From IMG/VR virus record IMGVR_UViG_3300033153_011579: a stretch of 64,000 bases of DNA; one strand, 5' to 3'. Positions within the stretch are counted from its first letter, which is position 1. Every line of letters begins with the position of its first letter. The notes beneath the pieces were generated by a model that saw nothing but the letters and a program-made list of their open reading frames with translations, had not been told where the DNA came from and did not search any database. Both the position numbers and the translations under genes were made by a program. This stretch comes from a virus. Lineage: Duplodnaviria > Heunggongvirae > Uroviricota > Caudoviricetes. Below are positions 22,827 through 45,008 of this stretch, piece by piece.

Positions 22827-23472
22827 CTTCGTCCACCTTCGTGAAGGTTGTTGCCCAGACCCACGGGTTGACGGCCCAACCGAGCCCGCGGGAGAAGTTG
22901 ATCTGGTCCCACAGTATCGCAAACCAGGCGCGCGGGCTATCGTAACTCTTCTCCCAGTCTGGTGGACAGCCCTCGGCGAGGGCGTCCTCGTCGGTGATGA
23001 CGTCGACCCGCTCGAGCCGGATCTTCTTTATGTCGAGGTCGAGTCTCGAATAGATCCGCTTCATGAACAGCGAGGTGGTCCATGGCCCATCGAATTCCGG
23101 GTCGGTCGCGCGCCAGTAGACGCCAGCTCCACCACCGATACTCCAGTGATAAAAGCATTCTTTGACCCAGTAGTGGTCGCCCGAATCCATCCTCGAATAG
23201 ATCCGGTGGCTGGTCCCTTCGAGACCCCACTCATCGTCGGGGCCGATATACGGGAGGTGCAGGTACGGGCCGCCGTTCCCGGCTGGCGAAGGTCCGCCGT
23301 CGGCGTGTGCGTTGTCCCAATCCCAGAGCTCTCGAGGCTTGAGGTGTTTGTACCACGGGCCGCCATCGAAGTAGGAGTTGATGTTCGTGACGACTCGGCG
23401 CGTCTGCGTCTTCCTGCCGGCGATGATCTGCCTGACCATCTCGTCCTTGAAGAGTATCGGTCGCTCGATCAT
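22819..23472 (-). CDS. ASCH-domain protein
   Basis: MIERPILFKDEMVRQIIAGRKTQTRRV typical ASCH N-terminus; ATGA overlap with upstream gene. Confidence 0.5.
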   Translation of the reverse strand: MIERPILFKDEMVRQIIAGRKTQTRRVVTNINSYFDGGPWYKHLKPRELWDWDNAHADGGPSPAGNGGPYLHLPYIGPDDEWGLEGTSHRIYSRMDSGDHYWVKECFYHWSIGGGAGVYWRATDPEFDGPWTTSLFMKRIYSRLDLDIKKIRLERVDVITDEDALAEGCPPDWEKSYDSPRAWFAILWDQINFSRGLGWAVNPWVWATTFTKVDEDG

Positions 23473-24215
23473 TTTGGAAAATCCTGAGGCCACGGATACT
23501 GCGGGGCCTGCTTGATGAGATTGTCCTTGACAAACACCGGAATATGATGGTCGAGGCACCAGAGACGGATATTCCAGGCCGTCTCTGCCGGGCATTCGAA
23601 CGCGTGCGGCCCAGTCATAGCACCGATTACTACCCAGCCGAGTCCGTCGAGGATCTTCGGGTTGAAGTTCTTCTCGACGAGCGGCTCGAGGCTGATCCAG
23701 TGGATGCCGGCCCTGGTCTCGGCGAGGTCATAGAGGCGATCGTCGGCCTCCCTGTCGTTCGTGGCGCTGACTCCCAGGTGGAGGTTATCGGGCCAGTCGC
23801 CGACGGCGAAGTTCAGCGGCCGCTTCGTCAGCATCAAAAACGTGTGCTGCGGCAGGGCGGTGATGGATTCGAGTATCTTTCGCTGGAGACCGGTCGTGTT
23901 GATCGCCACTTCCTTGGGATCGCCGGTCACTACCCAGCTCTGTGGAGACTCGACGCAGCAGAGGTCGGACATCGACCCGAGGAAGACGCGCTTCGTTTTT
24001 TTAGAACGCGAGAGTTTTGCGAATTCCCTCTCCCAGACGTCCAGGTGGACGGCGGGTGTGAAGGGGGCTAACCCCCTTTGTTTTAATCTCCAGTAAGCTG
24101 TTCCCTTCTTTCCTCCCAGTCTCGCCGCGAAGCGTCGCGCGTAGCAGTATTTACAACCGTTCGTGCAGCCGGTGAACGGGTTTATCGAAATATCGCACCA
24201 TTCGATCTTCGACAT
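23469..24215 (-). CDS. DUF5131 (phage Gp37/Gp68 family) radical-SAM-like protein
   Basis: MSKIEWCDISINPFTGCTNGCKYCYA with a CxxxCxxC cluster; start moved to 24215. Confidence 0.6.
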   Translation of the reverse strand: MSKIEWCDISINPFTGCTNGCKYCYARRFAARLGGKKGTAYWRLKQRGLAPFTPAVHLDVWEREFAKLSRSKKTKRVFLGSMSDLCCVESPQSWVVTGDPKEVAINTTGLQRKILESITALPQHTFLMLTKRPLNFAVGDWPDNLHLGVSATNDREADDRLYDLAETRAGIHWISLEPLVEKNFNPKILDGLGWVVIGAMTGPHAFECPAETAWNIRLWCLDHHIPVFVKDNLIKQAPQYPWPQDFPK

Positions 24216-24217
24216 CG

Positions 24218-24652
24218 CTACAGCCTTTCCACGACGGCCGCCATGAGGTCGATGACGGTGTCTCCGAGGTCGTCGATCTGAGTTTTGATCTTTTTGAATT
24301 TCTTTTTGAACGTGTTCGCCGAATCTTCGATGTAGCCGACCCGCGACTTGAGCCGATCGATTTTCTTCTCGATATTGCGGTCTCGCCTCTTGGAAGTCTC
24401 GTCGGCCCGCATGACCTGCTCTCGAAAATTCTGGTAGGCCGGACAGTCCGCCCAGCACTCCGGGCTCATTTTTTGCGATTGGGCCCGAGCTCTCGCTATG
24501 TCTTCGCCCGTCTTCTGTAGCGCCAGCTCGAGAGCGTGGTACCTCCCGAGCAGTACCGACTGCCACTGGAAGAGGAAGAACGACCGGTTCAGAGGCGGCA
24601 TTTTCTTCCACTCGTCGAGTTGGATCTCGGTCAGGTTGAGTTTGAAATCCAT
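24218..24652 (-). CDS. Coiled-coil protein (144 aa)
   Basis: ORF. Confidence 0.5.
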   Translation of the reverse strand: MDFKLNLTEIQLDEWKKMPPLNRSFFLFQWQSVLLGRYHALELALQKTGEDIARARAQSQKMSPECWADCPAYQNFREQVMRADETSKRRDRNIEKKIDRLKSRVGYIEDSANTFKKKFKKIKTQIDDLGDTVIDLMAAVVERL

Positions 24653-26062: not shown

Positions 26063-26266
26063 TCAATCCTCCCTCGTATATTTGTCTAAGAGCGCCTGCT
26101 GCTCCTTGGTGAGTTCTTCTCCGATCTGGGTCAGCATGACGACGTGCCAGAACTCGCACATCTCCCGCTGGGCGTCGTCGCACATTATTTGGAACTCGTC
26201 GGTGATCGTCTCGCCTTCTTCGAGCGGCGGCGCTTTGATCTCGACGGTCCAGGTGATCTCAGTCAC
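26063..26266 (-). CDS. Small acidic all-alpha protein, possible minimal MazG-like fold
   Basis: LEEGETITDEF…QREMCEFWHVVMLTQIGEELTKEQQALLDKY loosely matches the ExxE…ExxE helices of MazG; weak. Confidence 0.25.
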   Translation of the reverse strand: MTEITWTVEIKAPPLEEGETITDEFQIMCDDAQREMCEFWHVVMLTQIGEELTKEQQALLDKYTRED

Positions 26267-27368
26267 GGATCACCTCGACGATCCCTTTGGCAGTTGGTGA
26301 CAAGCTCGCGAGGACCGCATCGGCTCCGGTGACCTCCCTGATGTGCGCCAGGAACTTTGCGTCGTCGTCCATCTTCAAGATCTCGCCGCCGTCGAAGAAC
26401 CGAAAGTCGTCGTTGATGAGGTCGAGGCACGTGACGGCCAGCTCCGGGGTTTTCGTCATGATGTAGTCGTCTTTGTAGATGGCGTAGCTGAGCAGGTCGA
26501 GATCCAGGAGGGTCTTCCTAAATGTTCCCTGGGGGCCGTCGTCCGGGTTCTGCTCGTGTGGATTGTCCTTGATGTTGCAGGGGACGATGTCGCTCATCGG
26601 ACCTTTCCCATGCCGCGTCTGGTAAGCGCGGGTGACGAGCACGATCTCCGGCTCGTATCCCATCTCGCAAATATTTTTCGACCCGGTGTTCGTCGGAGTG
26701 ACGTATGGAAAAAAACCAAAATTCTGGTCGAGCAGCAGGCCTTGCGACCCTTCCCAGATAACCGTTTCGAACGAATCGATGACCTGCTCGTTCGACATCC
26801 CGATGGCCGCGTTGTGTGTCACCTCGTCGCACGCGACGAAGAAATTTTGGATGATGTAGTCGTCCGGTCTGAAGCCGTAGTATTGATAAAACTGCTCCAT
26901 CTTCATCCGCATTATTCTCGGGTGGAACAGGTCTTCGAACAGCAGGTGATGACCCTCCCGCTCTCTTTTGACGGTCGCGAAGATTCCGACCTCACAGCTG
27001 CCGCCGAAATCGGAATTCCGCTTATTCCACTCGATTTCAAACGGCGTGGTGACCGGGCACCTGTGGTCGACGAGGAGTCGTGGGAAGACTTTTTTCACCA
27101 GCAAGACGTCGAGCTCGTTCATGAGGGCGACGGGGTTGACCGAGCAGTATTTCGACCAGAAGGTCGGGACGCCTCGGAACGACCCGCTACCGAAATGAGA
27201 AAATACGTGAGACCTACCGTCCTCGAGCACCACCTGATGCGCGGCCTGGTGGCCGCCCGAGAACCGCACCACGAGCTCGGCCTTGTTGACGTCACAGAGG
27301 TAGTCGACCAGATGTCCTTTCCCCTCGTCCCCAAAGCCGAGCCCGATGACAGCGATGTGCTTGGTCAC
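26259..27368 (-). CDS. purZ?: Adenylosuccinate-synthetase-family enzyme (PurA homologue; candidate PurZ/PurZ0)
   Basis: N-terminal MTKHIAVIGLGFGDEGKGHLVDYL…VVRFSGGHQAAHQV matches the PurA P-loop and GGHNAGH signatures. It is 369 aa versus about 430 for bacterial PurA. Confidence 0.7.
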   Translation of the reverse strand: MTKHIAVIGLGFGDEGKGHLVDYLCDVNKAELVVRFSGGHQAAHQVVLEDGRSHVFSHFGSGSFRGVPTFWSKYCSVNPVALMNELDVLLVKKVFPRLLVDHRCPVTTPFEIEWNKRNSDFGGSCEVGIFATVKREREGHHLLFEDLFHPRIMRMKMEQFYQYYGFRPDDYIIQNFFVACDEVTHNAAIGMSNEQVIDSFETVIWEGSQGLLLDQNFGFFPYVTPTNTGSKNICEMGYEPEIVLVTRAYQTRHGKGPMSDIVPCNIKDNPHEQNPDDGPQGTFRKTLLDLDLLSYAIYKDDYIMTKTPELAVTCLDLINDDFRFFDGGEILKMDDDAKFLAHIREVTGADAVLASLSPTAKGIVEVIRD

Positions 27369-29478: not shown

Positions 29479-30102
29479 TCAAAAGCTCTTCCTACCGGTC
29501 AGCTTCGTGACCAGTTTTCCAATTTCGTCTGGCGTGGGCGCGTCGGGATCCGCCTCGGTCGACCCGGGCAAGAGGTGGGCGTCCTGCGCCGGCCGCAGAC
29601 TCGGGCACAGCACCTGTGCTGCTCCTGCCGTGAGCCGCCCCTTGTCGACCGCGGCCTTGATGGTTGACTCGCGCGAGCTGACGTCGTGCCCCAGGCTGAC
29701 CAGCCACGCGGGCTTCTCGCTCGAGTCTCGCCGGCTCGCGATCTTCTTCCTGTAGATTTCCAAAAACGCAACGCGGGCCGCCACGCGGTCGGTCATCTGG
29801 CGCACCGCCTCGAACGCCTCGGCGATCTCCTGCGTCCAGACGGTCGTGTCGTGCTCGGAGTGCGGGCAGAGGGCCCAGGCCTCTTGTGGGTCCGGCCAGC
29901 CGGTGTCCACCCGCTCGAGGATCGCAGCGAGGGTGAGACGACGGCTCAACTCCCGCCGGCACCGACGAAGCGCGTGCAGCACGACGTCGTCCGGATACAA
30001 GGACAATTCCTCGACCATCTCGGCTGTCGCCGCCTCGGAGAGCTCGGTCGCGCAGATCTCGGCGGTGACCGCCAAGGCGATCACGAGATTACTCTTCTTC
30101 AT
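29479..30102 (-). CDS. Hypothetical protein downstream of rep (about 207 aa)
   Basis: Start chosen at MKKSNLVIALAV…; start uncertain. Confidence 0.4.
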   Translation of the reverse strand: MKKSNLVIALAVTAEICATELSEAATAEMVEELSLYPDDVVLHALRRCRRELSRRLTLAAILERVDTGWPDPQEAWALCPHSEHDTTVWTQEIAEAFEAVRQMTDRVAARVAFLEIYRKKIASRRDSSEKPAWLVSLGHDVSSRESTIKAAVDKGRLTAGAAQVLCPSLRPAQDAHLLPGSTEADPDAPTPDEIGKLVTKLTGRKSF

Positions 30103-31111
30103 CTTCTTCAGCTTTGTATTTGTCGCGGAGTTTTCTCGCGACGTCCCCCGTGGTCGCCCGGCGGTCCGACGCACGCGCCGCGCCGTCGGTTATCTGTGAC
30201 CCGGTGGCCCACTCGGTCCTCACGGTCTCGGCGTCGACGAGCAGGGTGGGGAGGGCGTGGCCCTTCTTCACGTACCAGCCCTTGTTCATCGAGACGTAGT
30301 GCGCAACGACCTGCTCGGCGTCGGCGGCACCCAGGCGCTCGATGATGCGCCTTATGGCCGTGTTGGCCAGCGCGTTGCGCACAGGCGGAGTGCCGTACCG
30401 GAGCTTATAGGCGGCCGAATAGGCCTCCCAAACTCTCCCTGCTATCACCAGCCTCTCCTCCTTCGGCTTCGCCTTCGGTTTTTTCCTAGCTTCAGGTTTT
30501 TTCTCAACCGGGGTCACGGGCGCTTGCGCGCGTGAAGGATCCGGATCTCTCCCGTCGGGTTCCCCTCCGGGATCCCTTTCTGGATCTGGATCTGCCTCTG
30601 ATCTCTGCCTCTGCTTCTGCCTCTGCCTCTGCATGGCGTTACTATCGTTACTGGGCGTTACAGGGGGGTTACTAGGTGTTACATCAGCGTTACCAAGCGT
30701 TACATCAGCGTTACCATTACCTTTTTCATCCTCTTTTTTCCTCTCCCTGTACCTCCTTACCCTCTCAGCGGTTTTTTCTCGCCTATCGTCCGCCGAGCAC
30801 AGCTGCCGGTACTTCTCGCTGTTCAGCACCTTCCAGCCGCCGTCCACCGGGGCGATCCGCCGGCCCTCGTAATCCGGGGTCCTCGAGTGCTCGTCTGGAC
30901 TCATCAGCCGCTCGAGAGCTTCTTTGCAAAGGTCGAGGTCCACCCGCGCCTCGTGGGAGAGGCCGGGGACGCTCGCGCTCACGATCCCGTCTCTGTCCAT
31001 CAGCGCGAGCATCGTGATCCACACCAACCGGACGTGGTCCTCTTCGCAAACCCAGATCGACGACTGGAGAATCGAACTGTGCAACTTCGTAAAACCTCTG
31101 GTCATGGACAC
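30089..31111 (-). CDS. Putative replication initiator / replisome-organizer-like protein carrying internal iterons
   Basis: N-terminus FTKLHSSILQSSIWVCEEDHVRLVWITMLALMDRDGIV resembles phage replication-initiator N-domains. The basic linker is encoded by the GTTAC iteron array. Confidence 0.5.
   Translation of the reverse strand: MSMTRGFTKLHSSILQSSIWVCEEDHVRLVWITMLALMDRDGIVSASVPGLSHEARVDLDLCKEALERLMSPDEHSRTPDYEGRRIAPVDGGWKVLNSEKYRQLCSADDRREKTAERVRRYRERKKEDEKGNGNADVTLGNADVTPSNPPVTPSNDSNAMQRQRQKQRQRSEADPDPERDPGGEPDGRDPDPSRAQAPVTPVEKKPEARKKPKAKPKEERLVIAGRVWEAYSAAYKLRYGTPPVRNALANTAIRRIIERLGAADAEQVVAHYVSMNKGWYVKKGHALPTLLVDAETVRTEWATGSQITDGAARASDRRATTGDVARKLRDKYKAEEDEEE
30636..30716. repeat. Iteron array: 8 x GTTAC at 9-11 bp spacing inside the rep gene (candidate origin)
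   Basis: GTTAC starts at 30638, 30647, 30657, 30668, 30678, 30689, 30699 and 30710 (mean spacing about 10.3 bp). Flanked by a (CTGCCT)n tract. Confidence 0.7.
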
Positions 31112-32462: not shown

Positions 32463-32836
32463 AGTGAGGCCTCCTCACTTTCTGCGCAGGCCAGCCAGCG
32501 CTCCCACAGGTCGTCGTTCGCTCTCGACAGGTCGCGCACTATCTCCGCGCACTCCTCCCGACACGTCTCGATGGTCGGGGCGGCTGCCGCCTCGATGCAC
32601 AGCCGGAACTCTCGCGAGCGACACTCTTCGGACTGAGTCCTCGAGTAGTCGTGGGCCGAGCCGGGGCAGATCTCGTCGACCACCTCACCACACGTCTTCT
32701 CGATCGGCTCCGGGCAGTCGGTCTCGCACCGAGGAACGAAGAACGTTGCGATGACACAGCCGACCGCGATGCCGATGATCATGAACACGATGGCCAGCGC
32801 GATCATGCCGCCCTCTGTCAGTTTTCCGTCAGCCAT
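32459..32836 (-). CDS. Membrane-anchored Cys-rich protein (125 aa)
   Basis: N-terminal TM plus Cys-rich ectodomain; paralogue of the 8684..9052 product. Confidence 0.55.
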   Translation of the reverse strand: MADGKLTEGGMIALAIVFMIIGIAVGCVIATFFVPRCETDCPEPIEKTCGEVVDEICPGSAHDYSRTQSEECRSREFRLCIEAAAAPTIETCREECAEIVRDLSRANDDLWERWLACAESEEASL

Positions 32837-32839
32837 GAC

Positions 32840-33718
32840 CTACCTCTTGGCCGGCGACACTACAGGAATCGAGCTCCCCTCGCCCGTGGCGATGACCTTG
32901 TCGCCGGGCCCGACGCGTTTATAAAGCGTCTTCTTGGCTTCGATCTCTCGCAGCGCAAGGTACTTGTCGGTGAGCGCGCCCCCCATGATCTTCACGTAGA
33001 CCGCCTCGGACTCCGCCTCGGCCGTCCTGACCGCCTTCATCTTCTCGGCGACCTTCAGCCGGTTGTCGGCCTGGAGCAGCTCCATCGCCTGCTTCGCCTT
33101 CTCCTCGTCGATCTCGATCTCTCGCCGGCGCTTCTTTTCGACGGCCTTGGTGATGACCTCCGGGTAGTCGAAGTTCGAGGTGACGACGCTCACGAGCTGC
33201 ATCGGCGTCCCCTTCAGCGAGGCGTGCAGCTGCTTGTGAATCTCTTTCTGGATCGCGTCCCGGTTTTCTCTGATCTGCGTCGTCGAGTATTTGCTCACGA
33301 TGCCACGCGCGATCGACCGAGCCTCGGGCTTCACGTACACGTTGTACAAGCTCTCGAACCCGAGTGCCGCCGCGTCGTACTCATCCCATCGCTCCATCTT
33401 CGACCCCTGGCGATTCAGGAGCTCCTTGATCGCAGATCCGTCTGCCGAGACCAGCCGCGTCCTCGTCACCAAATTGAACCTGAAGTTCAGGTCGTCCGAG
33501 CACAGGACGCTCATCTTCTCCTCGATGGCGTCCTCCTTCGTGTCGACCAGCTGCATCGAGTCGCGACCCCAGCACCCGTGGTGACCGGGTTGTAACACCT
33601 CGCCCGTCAGCCCTCCCGGGGTCTGTACCATCCCCACCCAGCCCGCAGGAACTACCTCGTTGCAACCGATGACCAAAAACGCCGCCAGGAACATTCCCAA
33701 AACACATGCTGATTTCAT
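32840..33718 (-). CDS. SPFH/Band-7 (stomatin/prohibitin-like) lipoprotein
   Basis: Lipobox LVIGC; SPFH region …KAVEKKRRREIEIDEEKAKQAMELLQADNRLKVAE…; start at 33718 (ATGA overlap, SD AGAGAGG). Confidence 0.6.
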   Translation of the reverse strand: MKSACVLGMFLAAFLVIGCNEVVPAGWVGMVQTPGGLTGEVLQPGHHGCWGRDSMQLVDTKEDAIEEKMSVLCSDDLNFRFNLVTRTRLVSADGSAIKELLNRQGSKMERWDEYDAAALGFESLYNVYVKPEARSIARGIVSKYSTTQIRENRDAIQKEIHKQLHASLKGTPMQLVSVVTSNFDYPEVITKAVEKKRRREIEIDEEKAKQAMELLQADNRLKVAEKMKAVRTAEAESEAVYVKIMGGALTDKYLALREIEAKKTLYKRVGPGDKVIATGEGSSIPVVSPAKR

Positions 33719-34077
33719 TGCCGAGCCTCTCTTTCTTCGGTGGTGAAGTCCACCTTGGAGCCACCGCGAACGCACGCGATGACTTGTTTGAGTTCTGCGA
33801 TCACAAACCGACCGAGACCGATCCTGTCGAGGTCGATGATGAGGGGCGGTGTCGTGTAGCCACGATCGTTGATCCTCACACGGAAGTTAACCCAGTCGCC
33901 GACCTTCACCCTGGTAAACCACCCGCGCACGGCGACCACCTCCCCGCGGAGGGTGTTTGTTTTCTCCGAGAATTTATCTCCGCAGTCGTCGGCGTGGATC
34001 CGCACGATCATCGACTTTCTCGGCATCGACGTGACGATGCCCTTGATGTCCTCCCTCTGAATTTCTCTATCGGCCAT
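33715..34077 (-). CDS. Putative OB-fold NfeD-like partner of the SPFH protein
   Basis: GEVVAVRGWFTRVKVGDWVNFRVRIND beta-rich segment; sits between a membrane protein and the SPFH gene. Confidence 0.35.
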   Translation of the reverse strand: MADREIQREDIKGIVTSMPRKSMIVRIHADDCGDKFSEKTNTLRGEVVAVRGWFTRVKVGDWVNFRVRINDRGYTTPPLIIDLDRIGLGRFVIAELKQVIACVRGGSKVDFTTEEREARQ

Positions 34078-34510
34078 CGTCCCGCTCCTTCGCCCGCTCG
34101 AGCGCGGCTTCGATGTACTCGTTCGCCTGCTGGCGCGCCTCGTCCGGTGGCTCGTCCTGCTGACGAAGATGCTCCGGTTTCTTCGCCTCGCGGTCGGCGG
34201 CGAGCTCCTCGGCCGTTGGCTCGTCTGGTTTTTCGAGGTTGAGCTCGGTGCGCCCCTCCTCGGAGGGAGGCGTGATGTCTGGCGCTATCCCCGCTCCGTG
34301 ACCGAACAGAAGGCCGTGCACGAACAAGCCCTCGATGGTCAGCAACAACGATGCTACGAACAACCACCGGAGCGTCTTCGCGTTCAACACCGGGTAGCCA
34401 GCCTTGATGCGACCCCTGATCCCGAGCGCCAGGAAGAAAGCCGTGATTCCAAACAGGATCGCCACGATGACGATCACCAGCACCTGCATCAGATAGTTCA
34501 GCGAAAGCAT
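34067..34510 (-). CDS. Polytopic membrane protein (147 aa)
   Basis: Three or four hydrophobic helices, acidic C-terminus. Confidence 0.55.
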   Translation of the reverse strand: MLSLNYLMQVLVIVIVAILFGITAFFLALGIRGRIKAGYPVLNAKTLRWLFVASLLLTIEGLFVHGLLFGHGAGIAPDITPPSEEGRTELNLEKPDEPTAEELAADREAKKPEHLRQQDEPPDEARQQANEYIEAALERAKERDDGR

Positions 34511-34520
34511 CAGTTACCTC

Positions 34521-34922
34521 CTATGCCTTGATGATTTTCGAGGTCGGTGCCGAGCCGGCCATCATCACCTGCTCGGCTGCAACCCGGAAGCCGATCTGGA
34601 ACATCTTGGCCGCCTCCACCGGGAAGACGTTGTCGTACGTCGCACCGGTGGCCAGGACGTGCCTCGCAAACTGGTCTCCGCAGATCCGACCGACCAGACC
34701 GATCATGACGTTCTGCTCGAGGCCGCCGCGACACTGGATCCGCATGGTGTCGAAGATCGCATCCTCGATCGCCGGCAGGACGTCTTTCTTGGTGCGGTCG
34801 ATCAGGTTGGGAGTGTCCTTGCCGAGGTAGGAGTTTCCCAGATGCAGGAGGAACACACCCCAGATTTTGGTGAACTCCGTCACCTGCTTTTTGAGGTCTG
34901 CCGGAAAGGTATTAAAAGTCAT
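34521..34922 (-). CDS. Hypothetical protein (133 aa)
   Basis: Start at 34922 (ATGA overlap). Confidence 0.45.
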   Translation of the reverse strand: MTFNTFPADLKKQVTEFTKIWGVFLLHLGNSYLGKDTPNLIDRTKKDVLPAIEDAIFDTMRIQCRGGLEQNVMIGLVGRICGDQFARHVLATGATYDNVFPVEAAKMFQIGFRVAAEQVMMAGSAPTSKIIKA

Positions 34923-35146
34923 CGGGCGTCTCCTTGCCGTCGCGACCTGTCGCGACCCAGCTCCTGGCTGAAGGCGATCGTCCCAGGAATCCACTCCATA
35001 TTTTTGGCGTTCGTTTTTACGATGTTGAAGCAGTCCTGCACGATGCGCGACAGCGACACCTCGTACTTGTCGGCCTGCGCTCGCATCTCATCGAGCAACC
35101 CCTCTGGCAGATAGATCGACTGTTTTCTTTTGTCTAATACGGCCAT
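34919..35146 (-). CDS. Ribbon-helix-helix (CopG-like) regulator
   Basis: KQSIYLPEGLLDEMRAQADKYEVSLSRIVQD; start at ATG 35146. Confidence 0.5.
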   Translation of the reverse strand: MAVLDKRKQSIYLPEGLLDEMRAQADKYEVSLSRIVQDCFNIVKTNAKNMEWIPGTIAFSQELGRDRSRRQGDAR

Positions 35147-36152: not shown

Positions 36153-36465
36153 TGGTGTTTCCTCTCGCCGCGGAGCCATCTAGCCACACCGTTACCTACA
36201 TGTCAACACAGTGGCAAAAAAACTTAGCACTTGACAGGGTGGGAGAGATGGATACAGTGTGTGCAATGTATTCAGAGGTATCACACTGCACTCGCCACCA
36301 CCACGCAGTTGCTAATAGGTGCTCATATAAAGGATCACCTATTGTTGTAGCACAGGTGTGTGTAGTACGGCATGCTACATGTCCCTACCCACCCCCCCCT
36401 AAAAAACGAAAAAAAACGAGTAGTTTAAAAAAAACGATCACCTCCGGTCACGTTCAAAGGATTTT
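36153..36465. promoter_or_regulatory. Divergent AT-rich control region between the leftward and rightward operons
   Basis: Back-to-back TTGACA boxes (rc at 36203-36208 and + at 36230-36235). Hairpin AATAGGTG-N14-CACCTATT. GTAGCAC/GTAGTAC/GCTAC repeated half-sites. A poly-C/poly-A tract before the 36466 SD. Confidence 0.55.
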
Positions 36466-37780: not shown

Positions 37781-38246
37781 TTTGGCATCGCCGCGTCAGG
37801 GTGCTCTGGCCGATCTTCTCTCCACTGGAGAGTTACTCCCGATGGTCCTGGTCGCCCTCGGCCTGGCGATCGTCATCACGTGCACCAGGGCCGGCTACCC
37901 GCTCCGCTTCCTGTGGTGCATGCTCTTCAACTTCCGCTTCACCAGGTGGCTCTGGAACCTCGTGCTCTGCCCTCACTGCTGCTCGTTCTGGACCGGCTTC
38001 GCCGTTGGGTATGCGGTCACGGGTGACTGGATAAAAACCATACAGATCGCCGTCACGGCGTGCGGCGTCATGTACGTGCTCCAGAAGACTTTCTCACGAG
38101 ACCGCATTGTCGCCGCCGACCGTGTCCACGGCGACAGGTGGGTCTTGGATGTTCGCGGCGTAGCGTTTGAACCCCCTGAGGATTTCGAAGAGATCCTCGG
38201 TATAAAAAACGGTTTGAAGGAGACTCCAGATGACGAAGATGGGTAA
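37773..38246 (+). CDS. Polytopic membrane protein (157 aa, probable TTG start)
   Basis: SD AAAAGGAG 7 nt upstream of TTG; three hydrophobic helices. Confidence 0.5.
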   Translation: MINLASPRQGALADLLSTGELLPMVLVALGLAIVITCTRAGYPLRFLWCMLFNFRFTRWLWNLVLCPHCCSFWTGFAVGYAVTGDWIKTIQIAVTACGVMYVLQKTFSRDRIVAADRVHGDRWVLDVRGVAFEPPEDFEEILGIKNGLKETPDDEDG

Positions 38247-40275
38247 ACAACTCGGGGAAGCACTCGAAAAGAGCTTCGACAGAACCATCAGGGATTTCAG
38301 AACCGAGAGCCGGTCCACCGGCACCACGGGCCTCGATGCGCTCGAGCAGCTCGGGAGGGAGTTCGAAACCGTCAGCGTCAACATACATAGGAAAAACGAG
38401 CACGGTAAGTACACCCTGTTCTCTCCACTCGAGGGCGTGGCCGTCGCCGACCTCCTGCAGCAGGGGTACGACGTCTTTTGCAAGAACGAGGGCGGCGAGG
38501 GCGACTACAAGGTGGAGGTTGTCATCCCGGCGAAGGAGCCGGGGAAGCCACCCGTCCGTCGCTGGGAGGGGCCGTTCATCGTGAGCGGCACGCCGCGGCT
38601 CGAGGTCTCCAAGACCGAGATGTCCAAGCAACAGAACAGTTTCGGATTTCCGTTCAACATGATGAGCGGCCTCCCCGCGAACACCGCCGCCGCCGGCAAC
38701 CAGGGAGGAGCTCCCTACGTCCGCGACCTGCTCCAGCAGATGAACAAGTCCTCCGAGAGCCAGAACAACATGGTGCAGCAGATGATGGGCCTCATGATGA
38801 TGAAGGACATGATGCCCGGCGCGGACCAGAAGAAGAACGGCGAGACCGACGCCAATAACCCGGCCGTGCTCGCGCTCCAGACCCAGGTCAGCGAGGTGAC
38901 CCGACGGCTCGACGACGAGCGCCGACGGTCGGAGGACGACCGCCGATCTCGAGATCAGGAAAAGCGTATCGAGGCCGCCGAGCGACGCGCCGAGGAGAAC
39001 CACCGAGAGGTACTCCGCCTGCTCGACAACAACAAGACCACCGAGACCATCGAGCTCATGAAGCTCCAGCGCGACGGCCAGGGCTCCAAGGACGACTCGT
39101 TCCTCAAGCTGATGGCCATGAACCGTGAGGATTCCAACCAGTCCCAGGCGCGGTTCGACGGGCTCATGATGAAGCTGTTCGACAAGCCAGACGGCGTCGA
39201 CCAGAGCTCGAAGGTCATGGGCATGATGATGGAGTCGTCCGTCGCCCAGCTCAACATGATGACCCAGATCGCCGCGAGCGGTCTCGCCGGAGGTTCCGAA
39301 AACCCGTGGATCGACCTCGTCCGCGAAGGGGTCGGCACGGTCAAGGAAGGTTTCAAGGGCGTCCTCGCCATGAAGTACGGCATCGACATGGACGGCGACG
39401 ACGAGGACGGCGAAGATGGCGAAGAGGCCCCGGCCCCCCTCACCCAGCACGTCCCGCCGGCGAAGATCGAAGCGCGGACCGACCCGGAGACCGGAGAGGC
39501 GGTACCGGAAGAAGCACAGACCACCGTCGACCAGCCGGCTCCAGAAGAAGACACCGAGGACGAAATCCCGCAGAGCGCGCTCGACGACGCCGACGAGCTC
39601 AAAAAATACATCCTCACCGACGACGAGCTCACGGGGCTCGCGCAAAACCGGCAGACGCAAAAAATCCTCAAGGCCGTCGAGGAGAAGGACTATCCGCAGG
39701 CCACCGCCCGGATCTTCGAGCGCGTCCGTGGCAAGTCGCCCGTCCACAAGCGCTGGCTCAAAGCCCCCGGCCCGCTCACCGCGCAGATCCTCACGCACTT
39801 CGGGCTCACGCACCACATGTTCGCGATGACCCAGAACCTGATCGACTTCATCGGCCATATGAACGGCGGTGGAAATCCGAACGACTGGTCCGAGAACTAC
39901 AAGCCGGTCAAGGAAAAGAAGGAGAGCAAGATGAAACCCGACAACCCCGCAGCCACCGAGCTGGGCGTGACCATGGGCGAGCGCAAGGAAGGCGAGGACT
40001 ACGACGCGTCGAAGGTTCCCGACGATCCCAAGCTGGCCGAGCTGGCCGAGCAGCAGCGAGCTCTGCGCGAAGAGAAGAACGTGCTCGACCAGATGGAGCA
40101 GATCGAAGAGAACATCGGGTTGCTCAAGGAAGGGAAGATCGACCCGCAGCGCGCGGCGTTCCTGCGCACGGAGAAGAAGCTCCCGGCGTCCGGAGAAGAG
40201 GACGAGGCGCTCAAGGAGATCGCAAAGCTGCGGCACGACATAAAGAAGCAGCAGGCCGAGGAGGGGAGGGCTTAA
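38230..40275 (+). CDS. Large acidic, Met-rich, coiled-coil protein (681 aa)
   Basis: Protein-like composition, Met-rich blocks MMGLMMMKDMMPG and MGMMMESSVAQLNMMTQ, long acidic linker. The antisense 722-aa ORF has artefact composition. Confidence 0.7.
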   Translation: MTKMGKQLGEALEKSFDRTIRDFRTESRSTGTTGLDALEQLGREFETVSVNIHRKNEHGKYTLFSPLEGVAVADLLQQGYDVFCKNEGGEGDYKVEVVIPAKEPGKPPVRRWEGPFIVSGTPRLEVSKTEMSKQQNSFGFPFNMMSGLPANTAAAGNQGGAPYVRDLLQQMNKSSESQNNMVQQMMGLMMMKDMMPGADQKKNGETDANNPAVLALQTQVSEVTRRLDDERRRSEDDRRSRDQEKRIEAAERRAEENHREVLRLLDNNKTTETIELMKLQRDGQGSKDDSFLKLMAMNREDSNQSQARFDGLMMKLFDKPDGVDQSSKVMGMMMESSVAQLNMMTQIAASGLAGGSENPWIDLVREGVGTVKEGFKGVLAMKYGIDMDGDDEDGEDGEEAPAPLTQHVPPAKIEARTDPETGEAVPEEAQTTVDQPAPEEDTEDEIPQSALDDADELKKYILTDDELTGLAQNRQTQKILKAVEEKDYPQATARIFERVRGKSPVHKRWLKAPGPLTAQILTHFGLTHHMFAMTQNLIDFIGHMNGGGNPNDWSENYKPVKEKKESKMKPDNPAATELGVTMGERKEGEDYDASKVPDDPKLAELAEQQRALREEKNVLDQMEQIEENIGLLKEGKIDPQRAAFLRTEKKLPASGEEDEALKEIAKLRHDIKKQQAEEGRA

Positions 40276-40511
40276 TGGTCAACCACCAGGACCTGATGAA
40301 GCAGGCCGAGGCCATCTTCATCTTCTTCGAGCGAGAGGTGGAAAAATACGAGCGCGACCAGGGCGCACAGATGCTGACCGACAAGCCCACCAGAGAGGTG
40401 TGTCGGAAGACGCTGGTCGCCGCCGGGAACTACATCGCGAGAGCTATCGACGACCTCACCAAGATCGACGAGCACGAAGAGCTGCAGAAGAAGCAGCATC
40501 AGGAAGGGTAA
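40275..40511 (+). CDS. Hypothetical protein (78 aa)
   Basis: TAATG overlap; real part of the Arg-rich 39306..40511 ORF. Confidence 0.5.
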   Translation: MVNHQDLMKQAEAIFIFFEREVEKYERDQGAQMLTDKPTREVCRKTLVAAGNYIARAIDDLTKIDEHEELQKKQHQEG

Positions 40512-40512
40512 A

Positions 40513-40872
40513 ATGAAAGTCATCATCCACCCGCTTGGCGAGCGCGTACTCGTCGAGCCGTTCGACCTCGAAGGGGCGACCGCCGCCGGCGTCATCATCC
40601 CGCTCTCCAAGGGCTCCCACAAGCTCGGGAAGATAGTCGCCGTCGGCGACGACCTCGAGCCGTTGTGTGAAGAGACCGAAGCGGAGAGCGAGCTCGACGA
40701 CGACGAGGAGCTCGACCCCGTGAGCTCTTGGGGCCCCCCCCCTGTCGCGGTCGGCGACAGCATCATCTACAACCGCTTCCTCCCGCTCATCCTCCCCACC
40801 GATGATTCGAAAATCGAGAAGCACATGGTTGCGCTCGAGGACATCCAGGGCCGGGTCGAGATCGAAAAGTGA
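40513..40872 (+). CDS. groES-like: GroES-like co-chaperonin (Hsp10 family) with an acidic insert
   Basis: IHPLGERVLVEPFDLEGATAAGVIIPLS…KIVAVGDD…VAVGDSIIYN…IEKHMVALEDI matches the GroES pattern (PLgDRVLV…T.gGI.iP…G.VvAvG). Confidence 0.6.
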   Translation: MKVIIHPLGERVLVEPFDLEGATAAGVIIPLSKGSHKLGKIVAVGDDLEPLCEETEAESELDDDEELDPVSSWGPPPVAVGDSIIYNRFLPLILPTDDSKIEKHMVALEDIQGRVEIEK

Positions 40873-40874
40873 AC

Positions 40875-41207
40875 ATGTTCGAAAAACCGGTGGTCGTCGG
40901 GCCGCTGAGAGAGGAAGAGAAAATGTCAGCAGATAGAACCATCGACGCGGGGAAGGCGCGAGAGGCTGCCAAGGAGATCGGGGGACTCTTCTACGAGACC
41001 AAGGTGCAGACCAAGAAGCAGGCACGTGAGGTCGCACTCAGGATGGCCGATATGCCGATCGACTGGCACGGTATCATCGAGATCGTCGAGGACGGCCTCT
41101 TCGTGCACCACGGCTCACTCGAGACGGTAAAGTTGCTCCAGATTGCCGAGGGTGCCTGGACCGACCAGACGCTGGCCCTCACGTTTGTCGGCAAGCTGTT
41201 CGACTGA
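40875..41207 (+). CDS. Hypothetical protein (110 aa)
   Basis: ATG 40875 just after the GroES-like stop. Confidence 0.5.
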   Translation: MFEKPVVVGPLREEEKMSADRTIDAGKAREAAKEIGGLFYETKVQTKKQAREVALRMADMPIDWHGIIEIVEDGLFVHHGSLETVKLLQIAEGAWTDQTLALTFVGKLFD

Positions 41208-41299
41208 TCCTCAGCGAAAAACACCAATTCACGAAAAAAAAGAAGTCGTCCCAACACCCTGATAATCATGGGCAAACTCCTTAACAAGCCCATGTGTGC

Positions 41300-41348
41300 A
41301 AAAAAACACACTTGACTACAATGTGAGATATAGATTACACCAACACAC
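41300..41348 (+). promoter_or_regulatory. AT-rich intergenic patch with a TTGACT box upstream of the transglutaminase-like gene
   Basis: TTGACTACAATGTGAGATATAGATTACACC; the -10 assignment is ambiguous. Confidence 0.25.
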
Positions 41349-41951
41349 ATGAACCCAGAGGTGCATCGTGGGGTCACGAGCATCAAGCAACGACTCGACC
41401 TGATAGCACAAAGGATCGATGTCAGCGTTCGTAGACCCCAGAAATCCTTAGACGGACGGCAGTTCATGCTCAAGGATTTCACTCACTTCATCGTTCGCGG
41501 TACCCCACAACACGGCCCAGCATCAGAAGAAGAGCCCATCAACGCGGTGTTCAGCTACGTGAAAAACAACATCGAGTACCGCCAGGATCCGACGGGCTAC
41601 GACTACTACATGGGTGCCGGGCGCATCATCAACTCCAAGGCCGGCGACTGCGACGACCTCACCATCATCATCTGCGCGATGCTCGACAGCATCGGCTACC
41701 GCACTGGAGCTCGGGTGATCTCTCCCGACGGGCACCAGTGGCACATCTACTCGCTCGCCGGGGTCGACCCTGCGTTCAACGGGGAGCCCTCGAGAGTCGT
41801 ACCGCTCGACGCTGCCTACGGTGACGAGCCCGGCTGGGAGCCGTCGAACAGATTTCGAAAGTACGAGCAGCAATGCACCTTCTTTAAGGGCAAGGTCGTT
41901 GGCTACAAGGTCGTCCGGGACGGCGGGTCCTGGTTCAATTTTTTCAGGTAG
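41349..41951 (+). CDS. Transglutaminase-like cysteine-protease-fold protein
   Basis: GDCDDLTIIICAMLDSIGYRTGARVI (G.C.D…G.pAR core) followed by His (GHQWHIY) and Asp. Confidence 0.5.
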   Translation: MNPEVHRGVTSIKQRLDLIAQRIDVSVRRPQKSLDGRQFMLKDFTHFIVRGTPQHGPASEEEPINAVFSYVKNNIEYRQDPTGYDYYMGAGRIINSKAGDCDDLTIIICAMLDSIGYRTGARVISPDGHQWHIYSLAGVDPAFNGEPSRVVPLDAAYGDEPGWEPSNRFRKYEQQCTFFKGKVVGYKVVRDGGSWFNFFR

Positions 41952-41961
41952 GAGGGTACCA

Positions 41962-42927
41962 ATGGCCGTCAGGAATCCCAGTCTCGCCGCGCAGAACATG
42001 CCGCCCGAGTTTCGTTTCAAACCGACCAAAATCTATTACGACAAGCCGCCACGGAACACCGTCTACGAGGACGCCCTGGGGTCCGGTGGGAAAGCCCCGA
42101 TCGACCCGCGCCTCCAGCGGCTGCTCGACCCGATCACCTGGAAGTCCGACCGCTCGCCGGTCGCCAACATGCAGCAGAGCGCGCACGGCGTGATCTCGAA
42201 ACTCATCCACGAACACAAGCACTCGCAGACCCCCCGCACCATCATCCGCAAGAACGTCCCGAAGATAACGATCAACACGAGGCACGAAGAGCAGCCCGGA
42301 GCTCGCCAGCCGCTCATGCGCGGCAACCGCACCCCGCAGCAGGTGGCGCGCGGTGTGAAGACCACGCACAGGCCCGTCAGGCCGGGTCCGGACATCAACA
42401 AGATCAACGCCATCCTCGACCCACGGCGTGGCTTCAAGCCCGGGTCGGCCGAGGCGTACCGCAACCTCCTGATGCAGGCCACCCCGGAGTCGGTCGAGCA
42501 GATCGCCGCGAAGGCGGAGCGCGCTGCAGAAAAGCGCGAGGAGCCCACGACGTCCATCGGCAGTCACCAGTTCACCGACGCGGAGCTCCAGGCGGCCCCC
42601 CCCGGTCTGATCAAGGTGATGGTCGACCGCGAACTTCAACGACGCACCAAGAAGAACAAGCCGCGCGTGATGTTCGACCCGAGAGAATCTCGCGGTCTGT
42701 CGACACACGGGCAGTACACCACCATCCCGCGACCTGGTCTCGTCGAGTTCGAGCCCGGGAAGTTCATGCGGCCCGAGCAGCTCGGCATGACGGCAAACGA
42801 AGCGGTGGTCGCGATGGATTCCAACGGTCAGCCGAAGCCGAAGGTCGGCGGCGGGTCGATCCTCCTCGGCCTCGGTGCCGCGGCTCTCGCGATCCTCGGC
42901 CTCTCGATGGTAGTGGGTGGGAGATAG
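41962..42927 (+). CDS. Virion-region protein with a C-terminal TM (321 aa)
   Basis: SD GGTAGGAGGGTACCA-ATG; C-terminus ILLGLGAAALAILGLSMVVGG. Confidence 0.55.
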   Translation: MAVRNPSLAAQNMPPEFRFKPTKIYYDKPPRNTVYEDALGSGGKAPIDPRLQRLLDPITWKSDRSPVANMQQSAHGVISKLIHEHKHSQTPRTIIRKNVPKITINTRHEEQPGARQPLMRGNRTPQQVARGVKTTHRPVRPGPDINKINAILDPRRGFKPGSAEAYRNLLMQATPESVEQIAAKAERAAEKREEPTTSIGSHQFTDAELQAAPPGLIKVMVDRELQRRTKKNKPRVMFDPRESRGLSTHGQYTTIPRPGLVEFEPGKFMRPEQLGMTANEAVVAMDSNGQPKPKVGGGSILLGLGAAALAILGLSMVVGGR

Positions 42928-42928
42928 C

Positions 42929-43279
42929 GTGGGCGACGTCATCACACTGGACGGCCTCGACTCCACGACACTCTCCGGCACGAAGTGCGGGAAGCTCGTG
43001 TCGATCAACGCTCCGATGCTCGGGCAGAGCGTCCAGGTGTGCGAAACTGACGTCAGCCGCATGGCAGGCCTCGCGGGCGTCAAGCGCCGTCCTGGCCGCC
43101 CCAAGAACACCACCGTCAAGAACGGAGCGCGCAAGCCCCGGTTCAAGGGCTGCGGCTCTACCAAGGTAGTGAAGACCAAAAAAGGGAAGAAGATCTGTAA
43201 GTGTGCAGATCGTGGAAACGGGCAGATCCTGCCCCATAAATCCTGTGGGTTGGGAAAGCCCACGAAAAGGAGTCGATGA
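42929..43279 (+). CDS. Basic Cys-containing protein (GTG start)
   Basis: ORF; KR-rich. Confidence 0.4.
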   Translation: MGDVITLDGLDSTTLSGTKCGKLVSINAPMLGQSVQVCETDVSRMAGLAGVKRRPGRPKNTTVKNGARKPRFKGCGSTKVVKTKKGKKICKCADRGNGQILPHKSCGLGKPTKRSR

Positions 43280-43398
43280 TGGCCAGACGGAAGAAGAAGA
43301 AGGGTATCCGCACTGCTTCGGGTCGCTGCCGGTTCGGCAAGGTCAAGAAGGGCCGCCGGAAGGGCGCTTGCCTCAAGTCCAAGCGCGCCCGCAAGTAG
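43276..43398 (+). CDS. Poly-basic peptide (40 aa), not in ORF track
   Basis: SD AAGGAG 4 nt upstream; MMARRKKKKGIRTASGRCRFGKVKKGRRKGACLKSKRARK*. Confidence 0.5.
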   Translation: MMARRKKKKGIRTASGRCRFGKVKKGRRKGACLKSKRARK

Positions 43399-43471
43399 CC
43401 TTCGCCTGCTCTTTTAGCGGGCGGAACACACCGCAGCAGGCGAGTGATCCGCCCTGCGGAAGGAGGAGAAC

Positions 43472-43582
43472 ATGAAGAAGGGTACGTGCAAGCAGAACAA
43501 GAACAAACGCGGAGCCAAATGGGTCTGCCGGTCGAAGAAAACCGGCAGGGTCAAATTCTCCAAAACAAAGCTCTACAAGTGA
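43472..43582 (+). CDS. Poly-basic peptide (36 aa), not in ORF track
   Basis: SD GGAAGGAGGAGAAC-ATG; MKKGTCKQNKNKRGAKWVCRSKKTGRVKFSKTKLYK*. Confidence 0.5.
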   Translation: MKKGTCKQNKNKRGAKWVCRSKKTGRVKFSKTKLYK

Positions 43583-43590
43583 GCTCAACG

Positions 43591-44154
43591 ATGACGGGGT
43601 TTCCCGTCGAGGAGGACCAGAAGATGCGAAAGCGCAGCGATGACGCGGTCTCCGGCAGGGGACCACAGGACGACCAGTTCGTGGAAAAAAACGACGACAC
43701 CGACGTTGGTGCCTACACCATCGAGCCTCTGGCGGGAGTAATGGGCCTCGGGGCCAAAGACTTCCTTCCGCCCGCGGCCGGTGGCCTCGGCTACTTCGTC
43801 GCAACGTGGCTGGTGAACCGCTTCGGCGGGAACATCTCCGGCTACCTGACCCGGTTCGCTCCTCTCGTGGGCGGAGTGCTCGGGGCCTTGCTCAACGGCG
43901 TGGCCTTGCCCTTCGTCGCCAAGGGAAACGGGAAGAAGATGGTGGCGCAAGCCGCCGCCACTTCGCTGACCATGGGGATCATGTCCCAGATCCTCCGCGA
44001 GACCTCTGGCCTCGGAGCAGTCGTCATCGACCGGATCGCAGGAGCCGGTCCGATGGGTGCGCTCCCCGGCCCGACAGTCCACGGCGCAGGGACGATGCCC
44101 AGGCAGATCCGACAGACACTCGACAAGAGCGTCTATGGAAACTCGTGGGGCTAG
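43591..44154 (+). CDS. Gly/Ala-rich putative virion protein (187 aa)
   Basis: ORF, hydrophobic Gly-rich core. Confidence 0.5.
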   Translation: MTGFPVEEDQKMRKRSDDAVSGRGPQDDQFVEKNDDTDVGAYTIEPLAGVMGLGAKDFLPPAAGGLGYFVATWLVNRFGGNISGYLTRFAPLVGGVLGALLNGVALPFVAKGNGKKMVAQAAATSLTMGIMSQILRETSGLGAVVIDRIAGAGPMGALPGPTVHGAGTMPRQIRQTLDKSVYGNSWG

Positions 44155-44218
44155 GCCCCGCAAAACCCGTTAGGTCGATCGCTGAAAAGCACGCCTGACA
44201 CAGAGGAGAAAACAAGCC

Positions 44219-44929
44219 ATGGCCGTCAACACAATCGAATTGCCTTCGGGCGAGATCTTCACCATCGCCGATTGGGGCGATTTCCCGCTGTACTCGCGCG
44301 CCCAGATCGCTCCCGGCAACGCGCAGGACGTGATTGTTTTCAATTACGTCGAAGCCCAGCCGATCCCGGGCGGCGGTGTCGCCGCGGCGCTGTCAACGCT
44401 GATTGACAGCAATCTCGAGCAGGACTCCGCACTGCCCATCGACGAGCAGATGATCGTCTTCTCCGTCCAGATCCGTTTCGACGAAGCGGACTCGGATGCA
44501 GCCGGCCTGGTGACGCAGGCGGACAGCGGTGCAGAGGGCATGATCAAGTGGCTCAACATCACGCACAACACGTATTTCGAGCTGACGGTGACGAGCCAGA
44601 AGCCTCGGGTACAGGGCGTGATCACCGAGTTCCCGATCGGTGGTGGGTTGTACTGGCAGCAGTCCCGTGACACCGGCGCGACCGTGGCCGGCTACACGCC
44701 GACGCCGATGCCGTACGACAACAACGTGGCCTACGAGGTCATCAACGGGTTCCCGACCGCCGAAGCGGCTCGCCGCCTCGCGCTGCCGGTCCACATCCCG
44801 ACGATGCAGACCTTCAAGGGCCGCTTCCGGTGGCCGCGTGGTGCGCTGCCCGCCGGCGGTATCAGCCCGGTGACGGACTTCGGTCTGACCGTGTTCCTCT
44901 ACGGACCGCGTCAGCGCCAGGTCGACTAG
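44219..44929 (+). CDS. Putative virion structural protein (236 aa)
   Basis: SD GAGGAGAAAACAAGCC-ATG; beta-rich composition. Confidence 0.55.
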   Translation: MAVNTIELPSGEIFTIADWGDFPLYSRAQIAPGNAQDVIVFNYVEAQPIPGGGVAAALSTLIDSNLEQDSALPIDEQMIVFSVQIRFDEADSDAAGLVTQADSGAEGMIKWLNITHNTYFELTVTSQKPRVQGVITEFPIGGGLYWQQSRDTGATVAGYTPTPMPYDNNVAYEVINGFPTAEAARRLALPVHIPTMQTFKGRFRWPRGALPAGGISPVTDFGLTVFLYGPRQRQVD

Positions 44930-45008
44930 CCGAGCGATCCTACCTATTCACCACTCCCCGAGCCGACCGGCTCGGGGAGTTCCGAGGTGGTAGGATCAGG
45001 AGGCTGGT

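Follow-up and report, generated by a model that had tools for sequence, protein, structure and literature searches.

Organization of the locus

The DNA studied here, referred to below as the window, is a 64,000-nucleotide stretch of a virus (Caudoviricetes; IMG/VR record IMGVR_UViG_3300033153_011579). On its minus strand, positions 32840-34510 are filled exactly by three consecutive open reading frames (ORFs), which agrees with the coordinates of an initial annotation of the same DNA. That annotation read the three genes as an operon of an SPFH (band-7) lipoprotein, an OB-like protein and a membrane partner. We name them gene 1 (the partner), gene 2 (the middle orphan) and gene 3 (the SPFH lipoprotein); their coordinates are given in Table 1. 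Comparison with related loci indicates that the conserved unit is a two-gene phage module, consisting of the partner and the SPFH lipoprotein, and that gene 2 lies outside it. The viral origin of the DNA is borne out by phage-type genes in the window and by IMG/VR and phage-like contigs that carry the same module.

All three genes look like coding sequence. Read in frame they score +0.34 to +0.44 bits per codon, whereas the remaining frames of the same strand score below zero, and the G+C content at third codon positions is 0.74-0.85 across the three genes. Shine-Dalgarno-like motifs are located 6-8 nt upstream of genes 1, 2 and 3 (GGAGG, AAGGAG and AGAGG, respectively). Genes 1 and 2 overlap by 11 nt, and the stop codon of gene 2 overlaps the start codon of gene 3 as ATGA. 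The mechanical ORF of gene 3 starts at a GTG at 33775. The supported start is the ATG at 33718, because the start Met of 27 homologues lines up with it and because the lipobox then lies at the usual distance. Long ORFs on the antisense strand over the region (for example 32651..33595, plus strand, 314 amino acids) are artefacts of high G+C content; codon scores of the opposite strand are near zero or negative.

A scan for consensus promoters and terminators inside the operon gives sites not above the background of shuffled sequence. It therefore seems that the three genes are transcribed leftward within one long unit, whose start is close to the strand switch at about 36.2-36.4 kb. The strand switch itself (window 36190-36465) separates the leftward block, which holds the module, from a rightward block and is likely a divergent control region. 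A promoter-like TTGACA-16-TACAGT is found within it at 36231-36258 (+).

The SPFH lipoprotein

Gene 3 encodes a true SPFH/Band_7 protein. It matches Pfam Band_7 (PF01145) with E=1.1e-17 and 65 bits, against a cut-off of 23.6, over residues 22-210, and it matches PHROG 200 (phrog_200, 'lipoprotein') with E=2.8e-37. The search for homologues gives 173 at E<=1e-5, and PF01145 is present in all 120 among the matches listed. Several of the homologues are named 'regulator of protease activity HflC' by JGI. The closest relatives form an environmental clade of metagenome sequences that are 50-77% identical to gene 3, and the nearest named relatives are Myxococcota proteins. Cellular homologues with 54-60% identity, from metagenome-assembled genomes (MAGs) of Myxococcota, are found in chromosomal contexts (DsbD, VKOR-DsbA, MreB/MreC).

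The N-terminus of the protein, MKSACVLGMFLAAFLVIGC, shows the features of a lipoprotein signal. The signal M-K-S-A-C-V-L-G-M-F-L-A-A-F-L-V-I-G-C19 begins with a basic n-region, continues with a hydrophobic h-region and ends in V-I-G-C, which fits the lipobox pattern [LVI][ASTVI][GAS]C expected within about 15-35 residues. We judged the lipobox by motif and conservation. In an alignment with 27 homologues G18 and C19 are invariant, and all 27 have x-x-[GA]-C at residues 16-41. The product of gene 3 is predicted to be lipid-anchored at Cys19 and exported, with its body in the periplasm. The residue at position +2 is Asn in gene 3, not Asp, and is Thr or Asn in most homologues. The initial annotation had let its SPFH lipoprotein stand or fall with a Band_7 match and a lipobox; both are present, and this finding stands.

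The AlphaFold model of gene 3, with the homologue alignment as input, has a predicted local distance difference test (pLDDT) score of 82. It shows an SPFH alpha/beta core, then a 62-residue helix (residues 187-248) and a second helix (251-262). After the helices comes a conserved C-terminal G-D-K-V-I motif, in which G272, D273 and K274 are at least 90% conserved. A Foldseek search with the model retrieves the subunits of prohibitin 1/2, HflK, HflC, stomatin, erlin and QmcA from cage structures (E=1e-12 to 1e-8, 260-315 columns), and a profile search against PDB sequences finds prohibitin-2 at E=3e-7 with an alignment extending through the coiled coil. The model shows the cage-type SPFH architecture, with the core, the long coiled-coil helix and the C-terminal oligomerisation segment. 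Gene 3 is thereby predicted to hold all the elements that form the wall and the cap in solved SPFH domes.

The partner and its conservation next to the SPFH gene

Gene 1 encodes a protein with two transmembrane (TM) helices (residues 10-28 and 46-64), the basic loop RGRIKAGYPVLNAKTLR between them and an acidic tail of 83 residues. The description of this product as a polytopic membrane protein is right about the membrane; with two TM helices only, it is hardly polytopic. Searches of Pfam, PHROG, NCBIfam and PADLOC give no match for gene 1, and a word-indexed search of 5.8 billion proteins returns only gene 1 itself. The word index is insensitive for the partner family, because tblastn on the fetched loci gave 39 homologues where the index gave none.

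The comparison covers 80 related loci: the Logan contig L001, 8 IMG/VR, 5 GTDB and 63 metagenome contigs, and regions of cultured phages. With gene 1 alone as query, tblastn finds homologues in 39 of these 80 loci, and nearly all of them end at the start of the SPFH gene. A hidden Markov model (HMM) built from 12 partner members matches in 63 of the 80. The matching gene is immediately upstream of the SPFH gene in 60 of these 63 cases and downstream in 3, and the gap between partner and SPFH gene is mostly -18 to +63 nt. Of the 64 informative loci, defined by an SPFH match of nearly full length and 450 nt or more of upstream sequence, 59 have the partner adjoining the SPFH gene. L001, the closest relative, has an SPFH protein that is 77% identical, and there the partner meets the SPFH gene directly with a 4-nt overlap. 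The pair is kept across phages that differ in their replication modules and in G+C content, down to 28-35% SPFH identity.

The partner family shares a common architecture. Exactly two TM helices are predicted in 50 of its 57 unique sequences. The loop has a median of 5 K+R versus 2 D+E and the N-terminus is uncharged, while the tail has about 73 amino acids with D+E 17 versus K+R 12. Conserved motifs of the tail are F-G-P-G just after TM2, G86, P95, L115-K116 and E-A-D-x-Y at 128-132. The positive-inside rule leads us to infer a topology with the N-terminus outside, two TM helices, a cytoplasmic loop and a periplasmic tail. Because the rule puts the tail in the periplasm, it would be in the same compartment as the exported SPFH body.

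Two cultured phages show pairs of the same layout. In Pseudomonas phage PS24, gp114 (two TM helices and a charged tail) is directly upstream of the SPFH lipoprotein gp113. In Vibrio phage KVP40, KVP40.0338 (two TM helices and a hydrophilic tail) is directly downstream of the SPFH lipoprotein KVP40.0339. The KVP40 pair (locus L081, 1986-3275) is inserted between baseplate genes 25 and 5. The FxsA (PF04186) label that a GenBank note gives to KVP40.0338 is not reproduced with current Pfam at E<=0.01.

Some single loci are worth recording. Two GTDB loci, L015 and L017, labelled as Paceibacteria and Saccharibacteria MAGs, have the partner-SPFH pair among phage-like genes and may represent phage DNA that was binned into genomes of the candidate phyla radiation (CPR), not CPR chromosomal DNA. 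Locus L058 is the only one outside Myxococcota that has ample upstream sequence (4 kb) and no match to the partner.

The partner appears to be associated with viral SPFH copies. This bears on the idea that gene 3 is a passenger, recently captured from a Myxococcota-like host, with no phage role and with unrelated neighbours. The chromosomal setting of the Myxococcota homologues, at the identities given above, speaks for such a capture. Against it, the pair persists across diverse phages to the low SPFH identities just described, the partner, itself associated with phages, is coupled to the SPFH gene, and PHROG 200 is large and occurs in phages of five genera (Pseudomonas, Vibrio, Aeromonas, Klebsiella and Erwinia). 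We consider the passenger explanation scarcely credible, and the loci compared point to a conserved two-gene module of partner and SPFH lipoprotein.

The middle gene and the comparison with NfeD

Gene 2 differs from its two neighbours in its distribution. The word-indexed search of 5.8 billion proteins finds only gene 2 itself. This negative is weaker than it looks because the index is insensitive for the partner family, and for this reason all 80 loci were searched with tblastn; gene 2 is found in none of the 80, L001 included. A full HMMER scan of 1.84 billion representatives gives two weak matches and no true homologue. The candidate P0123, a helicase whose tail is repetitive, was rejected, because its score is an additive artefact of a 35-residue segment that recurs in it. 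The codon usage of gene 2 is coding-like (+0.37 bits per codon). Gene 2 is best described as a lineage-specific orphan insertion, probably a real gene as judged by codon usage, that lies outside the conserved module. The three-gene look of the window is due to this insertion, and the OB-like gene that had been counted as part of the system is missing from every one of the related loci.

The fold of gene 2 is a matter of low confidence. Matches to Pfam are sub-threshold only (CusF_Ec at 0.029 and DPBB_1 at 0.033), and a CSD_V match in PADLOC (E=0.025) is noise. The single-sequence AlphaFold model has a pLDDT of 40.9, with four strands in residues 22-70 and one helix, and Foldseek on this poor model gives a best E=0.12 and no OB fold. 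An OB fold is neither shown nor strictly excluded, and the beta-rich character is a low-confidence prediction. The protein has no TM segment or signal peptide, and its maximum 19-residue hydropathy is 1.15. With no export signal, the product of gene 2 should be cytoplasmic, apart from the exported SPFH domain.

The initial annotation had likened the three genes to the NfeD-SPFH operons of the host. Under this comparison they would be a viral copy of such an operon in which NfeD is divided between two genes: gene 1 would supply the membrane part, and gene 2 the OB part that binds the SPFH protein. The gene order of membrane protein, small soluble protein and SPFH protein, with translational coupling, agrees with this, as do the four low-confidence strands of gene 2 and its sub-threshold match to CusF_Ec, an OB-type family. 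The direct comparisons do not. E. coli YbbJ, as positive control, matches Pfam NfeD (PF01957) with E=3.5e-12, whereas neither gene 1 nor gene 2 nor any of 12 partner homologues matches it at E<=1. An hhalign comparison of the partner family with YbbJ gives 1.2% probability, and BLASTP of gene 2 against YbbJ gives E=2.1. None of the hallmarks of NfeD is seen in gene 2: no OB domain is recognised in it, and it lacks a membrane anchor on the SPFH side and co-occurrence with SPFH genes. Gene 1 has TM helices and is the operon partner of the SPFH gene; in place of a C-terminal OB domain it has a charged, acidic tail. The absence of gene 2 from the 77%-identical relative and from the other loci, and a cytoplasmic gene 2 product facing a periplasmic SPFH domain, also argue against a split NfeD. 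This reading is very improbable and largely refuted. The module resembles NfeD-SPFH operons in their logic, an SPFH gene joined to a membrane-protein gene, without being homologous to them.

Genomic context

The module is located among replication and nucleotide-metabolism genes (Table 1), and the link to the late region that had been suggested for it is not supported. The PurZ-like adenylosuccinate synthetase of the window suggests that the phage may swap adenine for 2-aminoadenine (Z-genome). Similar neighbours recur in relatives. In L001 a Dam methylase is encoded upstream, and the genes downstream are those of a PD-(D/E)XK nuclease, an AAA_24 ATPase and DNA polymerase A. In the IMG/VR phage L005 an adenylosuccinate synthetase homologue (3372-4493) is immediately upstream of the partner-SPFH pair, and in L006 a thymidylate kinase is upstream of the module and a UDG-family gene is downstream. 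This recurrent neighbourhood suggests early or middle expression.

Table 1. Features of the module and of neighbouring genes in the window
Feature	Position	Strand	Evidence or remark
Gene 1, partner, 147 amino acids	34510..34067	-	ORF and ribosome-binding site
Gene 2, middle orphan, 120 amino acids	34077..33715	-	ORF
Gene 3, SPFH (Band_7, prohibitin/HflK-like) lipoprotein, 292 amino acids from the ATG at 33718	33718..32840	-	Pfam, PHROG
Predicted lipoprotein signal peptide of gene 3, residues 1-19	33662..33718	-	Lipobox V-I-G-C, Cys19, +2 residue Asn
SPFH domain of gene 3, residues 22-210	33089..33655	-	Pfam envelope; model pLDDT mostly 85-95
Predicted coiled-coil helix (residues 187-248) and second helix (251-262) of gene 3	32933..33160	-	DSSP on model
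Possible accessory gene, 125 amino acids	32459..32836	-	One TM helix, 10 cysteines; starts 4 nt after the SPFH stop
Replication-initiator-like gene	30089..31111	-	Downstream on the module strand
PurZ-like adenylosuccinate synthetase	26259..27368	-	phrog_1211 E=1.2e-51; Pfam Adenylsucc_synt E=1e-39
DUF5131 gene (radical-SAM-like phage Gp37/Gp68 family)	23469-24611	-	Module strand
SLT lytic-transglycosylase-domain gene, possible endolysin	20609-21295	-	About 11.5 kb from the pair

The 125-residue Cys-rich protein encoded next to the SPFH gene has a homologue in L001 (3906-4205), upstream of the partner gene of that phage, and a paralogue at window 8717-9019 (+) with 30% identity (E=7e-10). Unrelated Cys-rich ORFs with a TM helix are found between the partner and SPFH genes at L052 933-1199 and L068 502-792. 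As a third conserved component this type of small protein, with one TM helix and about 8-10 cysteines, was rejected after a scan of all loci, which shows that it is not general; it may be an occasional third component. A PHROG scan of nine neighbouring small ORFs is uninformative, as are NCBIfam and PADLOC for all the genes searched.

Upstream of the module, a 75-residue ORF at window 34919-35146 (-), MAVLDKRKQSIYLPEGLL..., is kept in L001 (about 3204-3425). By eye it has the look of a ribbon-helix-helix regulator, and it has no PHROG match. On the plus strand, window 38230-53571 holds seven large ORFs (300-681 amino acids), presumably structural and packaging genes, with no Pfam match; 38230-40275, 41821-42927 and 51754-53571 (+) also have no match to PHROGs. 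Downstream of this block only Laminin_G_3 (56532-57872) and GP88 (59713-61014) domains are recognised. The virion module is very divergent.

Proposed mechanism

The reading towards which we lean, at slightly better than even confidence and by analogy with known assemblies, is a periplasm-facing SPFH cage that would enclose the two-TM partner and act on the host envelope during infection. The lipoprotein signal would export the SPFH protein, Cys19 would be acylated and the body would reside in the periplasm. The SPFH subunits would oligomerise through their long coiled-coil helices and the C-terminal motif into a ring or dome on the membrane surface. This dome would fence a membrane patch that holds the TM hairpin of the partner, and the partner tail would contact the dome from the inside. 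In such an arrangement the partner would work like an NfeD-type cage occupant without being NfeD. The basis of the analogy is the HflK/C-FtsH, QmcA-YbbJ, prohibitin, stomatin, erlin and flotillin assemblies; HflK/C encloses FtsH on the periplasmic side. The module would act on the host envelope, most likely in superinfection exclusion at the periplasm or inner membrane, or in envelope stabilisation until lysis. Both roles would suit a module that is located in the envelope and probably expressed before lysis. The initial annotation had likewise proposed superinfection exclusion, and also a remodelling of host membrane scaffolds, and either may apply. We infer cage formation, partner interaction, expression timing and biological role alike, and the role is the weakest step.

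Several observations weigh against this interpretation. Early or middle expression is suggested by gene neighbours only. The partners in PS24 and KVP40 are matched by architecture only: PS24 gp114 is in the seed alignment of the HMM, which makes its HMM match circular, and KVP40.0338 has no detectable sequence similarity to the partner family. The closest cellular homologues (Myxococcota MAGs, 54% identity) lack a partner gene on both strands out to a distance of 5 kb, and the SPFH protein can therefore work alone. The last 16 or so residues of the gene 3 model are of low confidence. PADLOC-DB v2 gives no defence match for the SPFH protein, the partner or the Cys-rich protein. In the searched literature phage SPFH proteins receive mentions at the level of annotation only, with no function. 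The PS24 pair is about 2.7 kb from annotated Rz-like spanin genes. Finally, in E. coli a lipoprotein with Asn at +2 would be sent to the outer membrane. Under this rule the product of gene 3 would go to the outer membrane, away from its inner-membrane partner.

The +2 residue allows a different arrangement of the same two proteins. The SPFH dome would sit on the inner leaflet of the outer membrane and be tied to the inner membrane through the partner tail, forming a trans-envelope scaffold. The +2 residue, not being Asp, agrees with it, and we regard it as unlikely, if worth keeping in mind. If true, this scaffold would close the envelope to incoming phage DNA or hold the envelope until lysis. 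No SPFH protein is known to build anything of this kind, and the scaffold would be common to environmental, Pseudomonas PAK_P-type and KVP40-type phages.

An outer-membrane position could also fit a spanin-like lysis device, in which the lipoprotein binds the periplasmic tail of the partner and helps to disrupt the envelope or sets the time of its disruption. Two-component spanins are laid out in this way, with a lipoprotein and an inner-membrane protein whose tail is periplasmic (PMC6139136). The +2 residue, the short distance to the spanins in PS24 and the report of the prophage SPFH protein PM0222 in outer-membrane vesicles (PMC9872710) point the same way. The two proteins themselves do not look like spanins. 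An o-spanin is typically a small outer-membrane lipoprotein rich in proline, an i-spanin has a single N-terminal TM helix and a periplasmic coiled coil, and both belong to the lysis cassette, whereas the lipoprotein here is a 292-residue SPFH protein and the partner has two TM helices. Moreover, PS24 has separate spanins, and in the window and most relatives the pair is among DNA-metabolism genes, with the SLT-domain gene of the window well away from it (Table 1). We hold a lysis device to be improbable.

About as improbable is interference with a host protease, in which the phage SPFH protein would mimic or poison the periplasm-facing HflK/C cage or a prohibitin-like regulator and alter FtsH activity. 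Among bacterial SPFH cages, HflK/C is the one known to face the periplasm, and FtsH is under its control. HflK and HflC (7vhq, 7wi3, 9cz2) are full-length matches of the gene 3 model, and the names given by JGI to several homologues are in line with this. With 14-19% identity to HflK/C, however, co-assembly is unlikely, and the cellular proteins closest to gene 3 are SPFH lipoproteins that stand alone and are not HflK/C. That a dedicated partner is conserved points to a complex of its own, and the module has no protease gene. The enclosing of the partner in a dedicated SPFH cage remains the interpretation that we prefer.

Relationship to known systems

Phage SPFH 'lipoproteins' of PHROG 200 are the same family as gene 3 by HMM and have a lipobox N-terminus. 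Members of this large family include the gp113-type proteins of Pseudomonas Nankokuvirus/Pakpunavirus, PA1C-like jumbo phages, KVP40.0339 and Aeromonas/RB43-type T4-like phages. They are only about 27% identical to gene 3, which belongs to the environmental clade. Among GenBank phage records, 99 match gene 3 with 25-29% identity over at least 80% of the length, and some of these are annotated 'SPFH domain/band 7', 'prohibitin family' or 'lipoprotein'. SPFH ORFs of T4-like phages were listed in 2006 (PMC1524935), and phage SPFH function has been described as poorly understood (PMC7760394). For the partner family we found no description in the searched literature, Pfam, PHROG or NCBIfam.

The bacterial SPFH-NfeD operons are E. 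coli QmcA-YbbJ (PDB 8z5g), B. subtilis/S. aureus FloA-NfeD and P. horikoshii PH1511-PH1510. An SPFH gene with a co-transcribed small membrane-protein gene is common to these operons and the phage module. The gene 3 model aligns with QmcA over 305 columns (Foldseek E=1.5e-8). A shared principle, a cage with its partner inside, is plausible by analogy. One passage of PMC13086221, citing Tan et al. 2024, gives QmcA-YbbJ as a cage of 26 heterodimers, and a passage of PMC12624060 describes SPFH proteins as forming domed rings on membranes. The differences are equally clear. The phage partner lacks an NfeD domain; for its tail the prediction is a charged segment, either disordered or helical, not an OB barrel. 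Gene 3 is predicted to be anchored by lipid, not by an N-terminal TM helix or hairpin, and the partner gene comes first here. QmcA-YbbJ protrudes into the cytoplasm according to the same passage of PMC13086221, whereas gene 3 is predicted to face the periplasm.

The best matches of gene 3 are HflK/C-FtsH and mitochondrial prohibitin (Foldseek E=1e-12 to 1e-10 for prohibitin, HflK and HflC). HflK/C faces the periplasm, as gene 3 is predicted to do. Gene 3 differs from HflK/C and prohibitin in its low identity (14-19%), in its predicted lipid anchor instead of a TM helix and in the lack of an encoded AAA protease partner. To judge from the locus, it would be homo-oligomeric, as opposed to the K/C or PHB1/2 heteropair.

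The superinfection-exclusion proteins T5 Llp, T4 Imm/Sp and TP-J34 Ltp are phage-encoded, located in the envelope and made before lysis, and some are lipoproteins. To our knowledge, none of them has an SPFH domain or any sequence or fold relation to the module. PM0222 of Pasteurella multocida, likened here by its description, is an HflK/C-like SPFH protein that is borne by a prophage, as gene 3 is borne by a phage. Its described role is in virulence toward animals, and it is reported to signal through TLR1/2, the receptor pair for acylated lipopeptides (PMC9872710).

Biological meaning

Phage SPFH lipoproteins are already catalogued (PHROG 200 and the 99 GenBank records), and the SPFH gene itself is not new. 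What we have not found described is the non-NfeD partner, the two-gene, periplasm-facing module of very different phages and the origin of the three-gene look in an orphan insertion. SPFH proteins (prohibitin, stomatin, flotillin and HflK/C) are now seen as membrane-fencing cages. The vague annotation 'lipoprotein' is replaced here by a defined two-component system that is testable in cultivable phages (PS24/PAK_P-type and KVP40). If no phenotype is seen there, the module would be an ordinary accessory gene pair. If it is an exclusion or envelope-protection device, a viral SPFH protein would have its first known function, and the SPFH cage would have been put to a new use.

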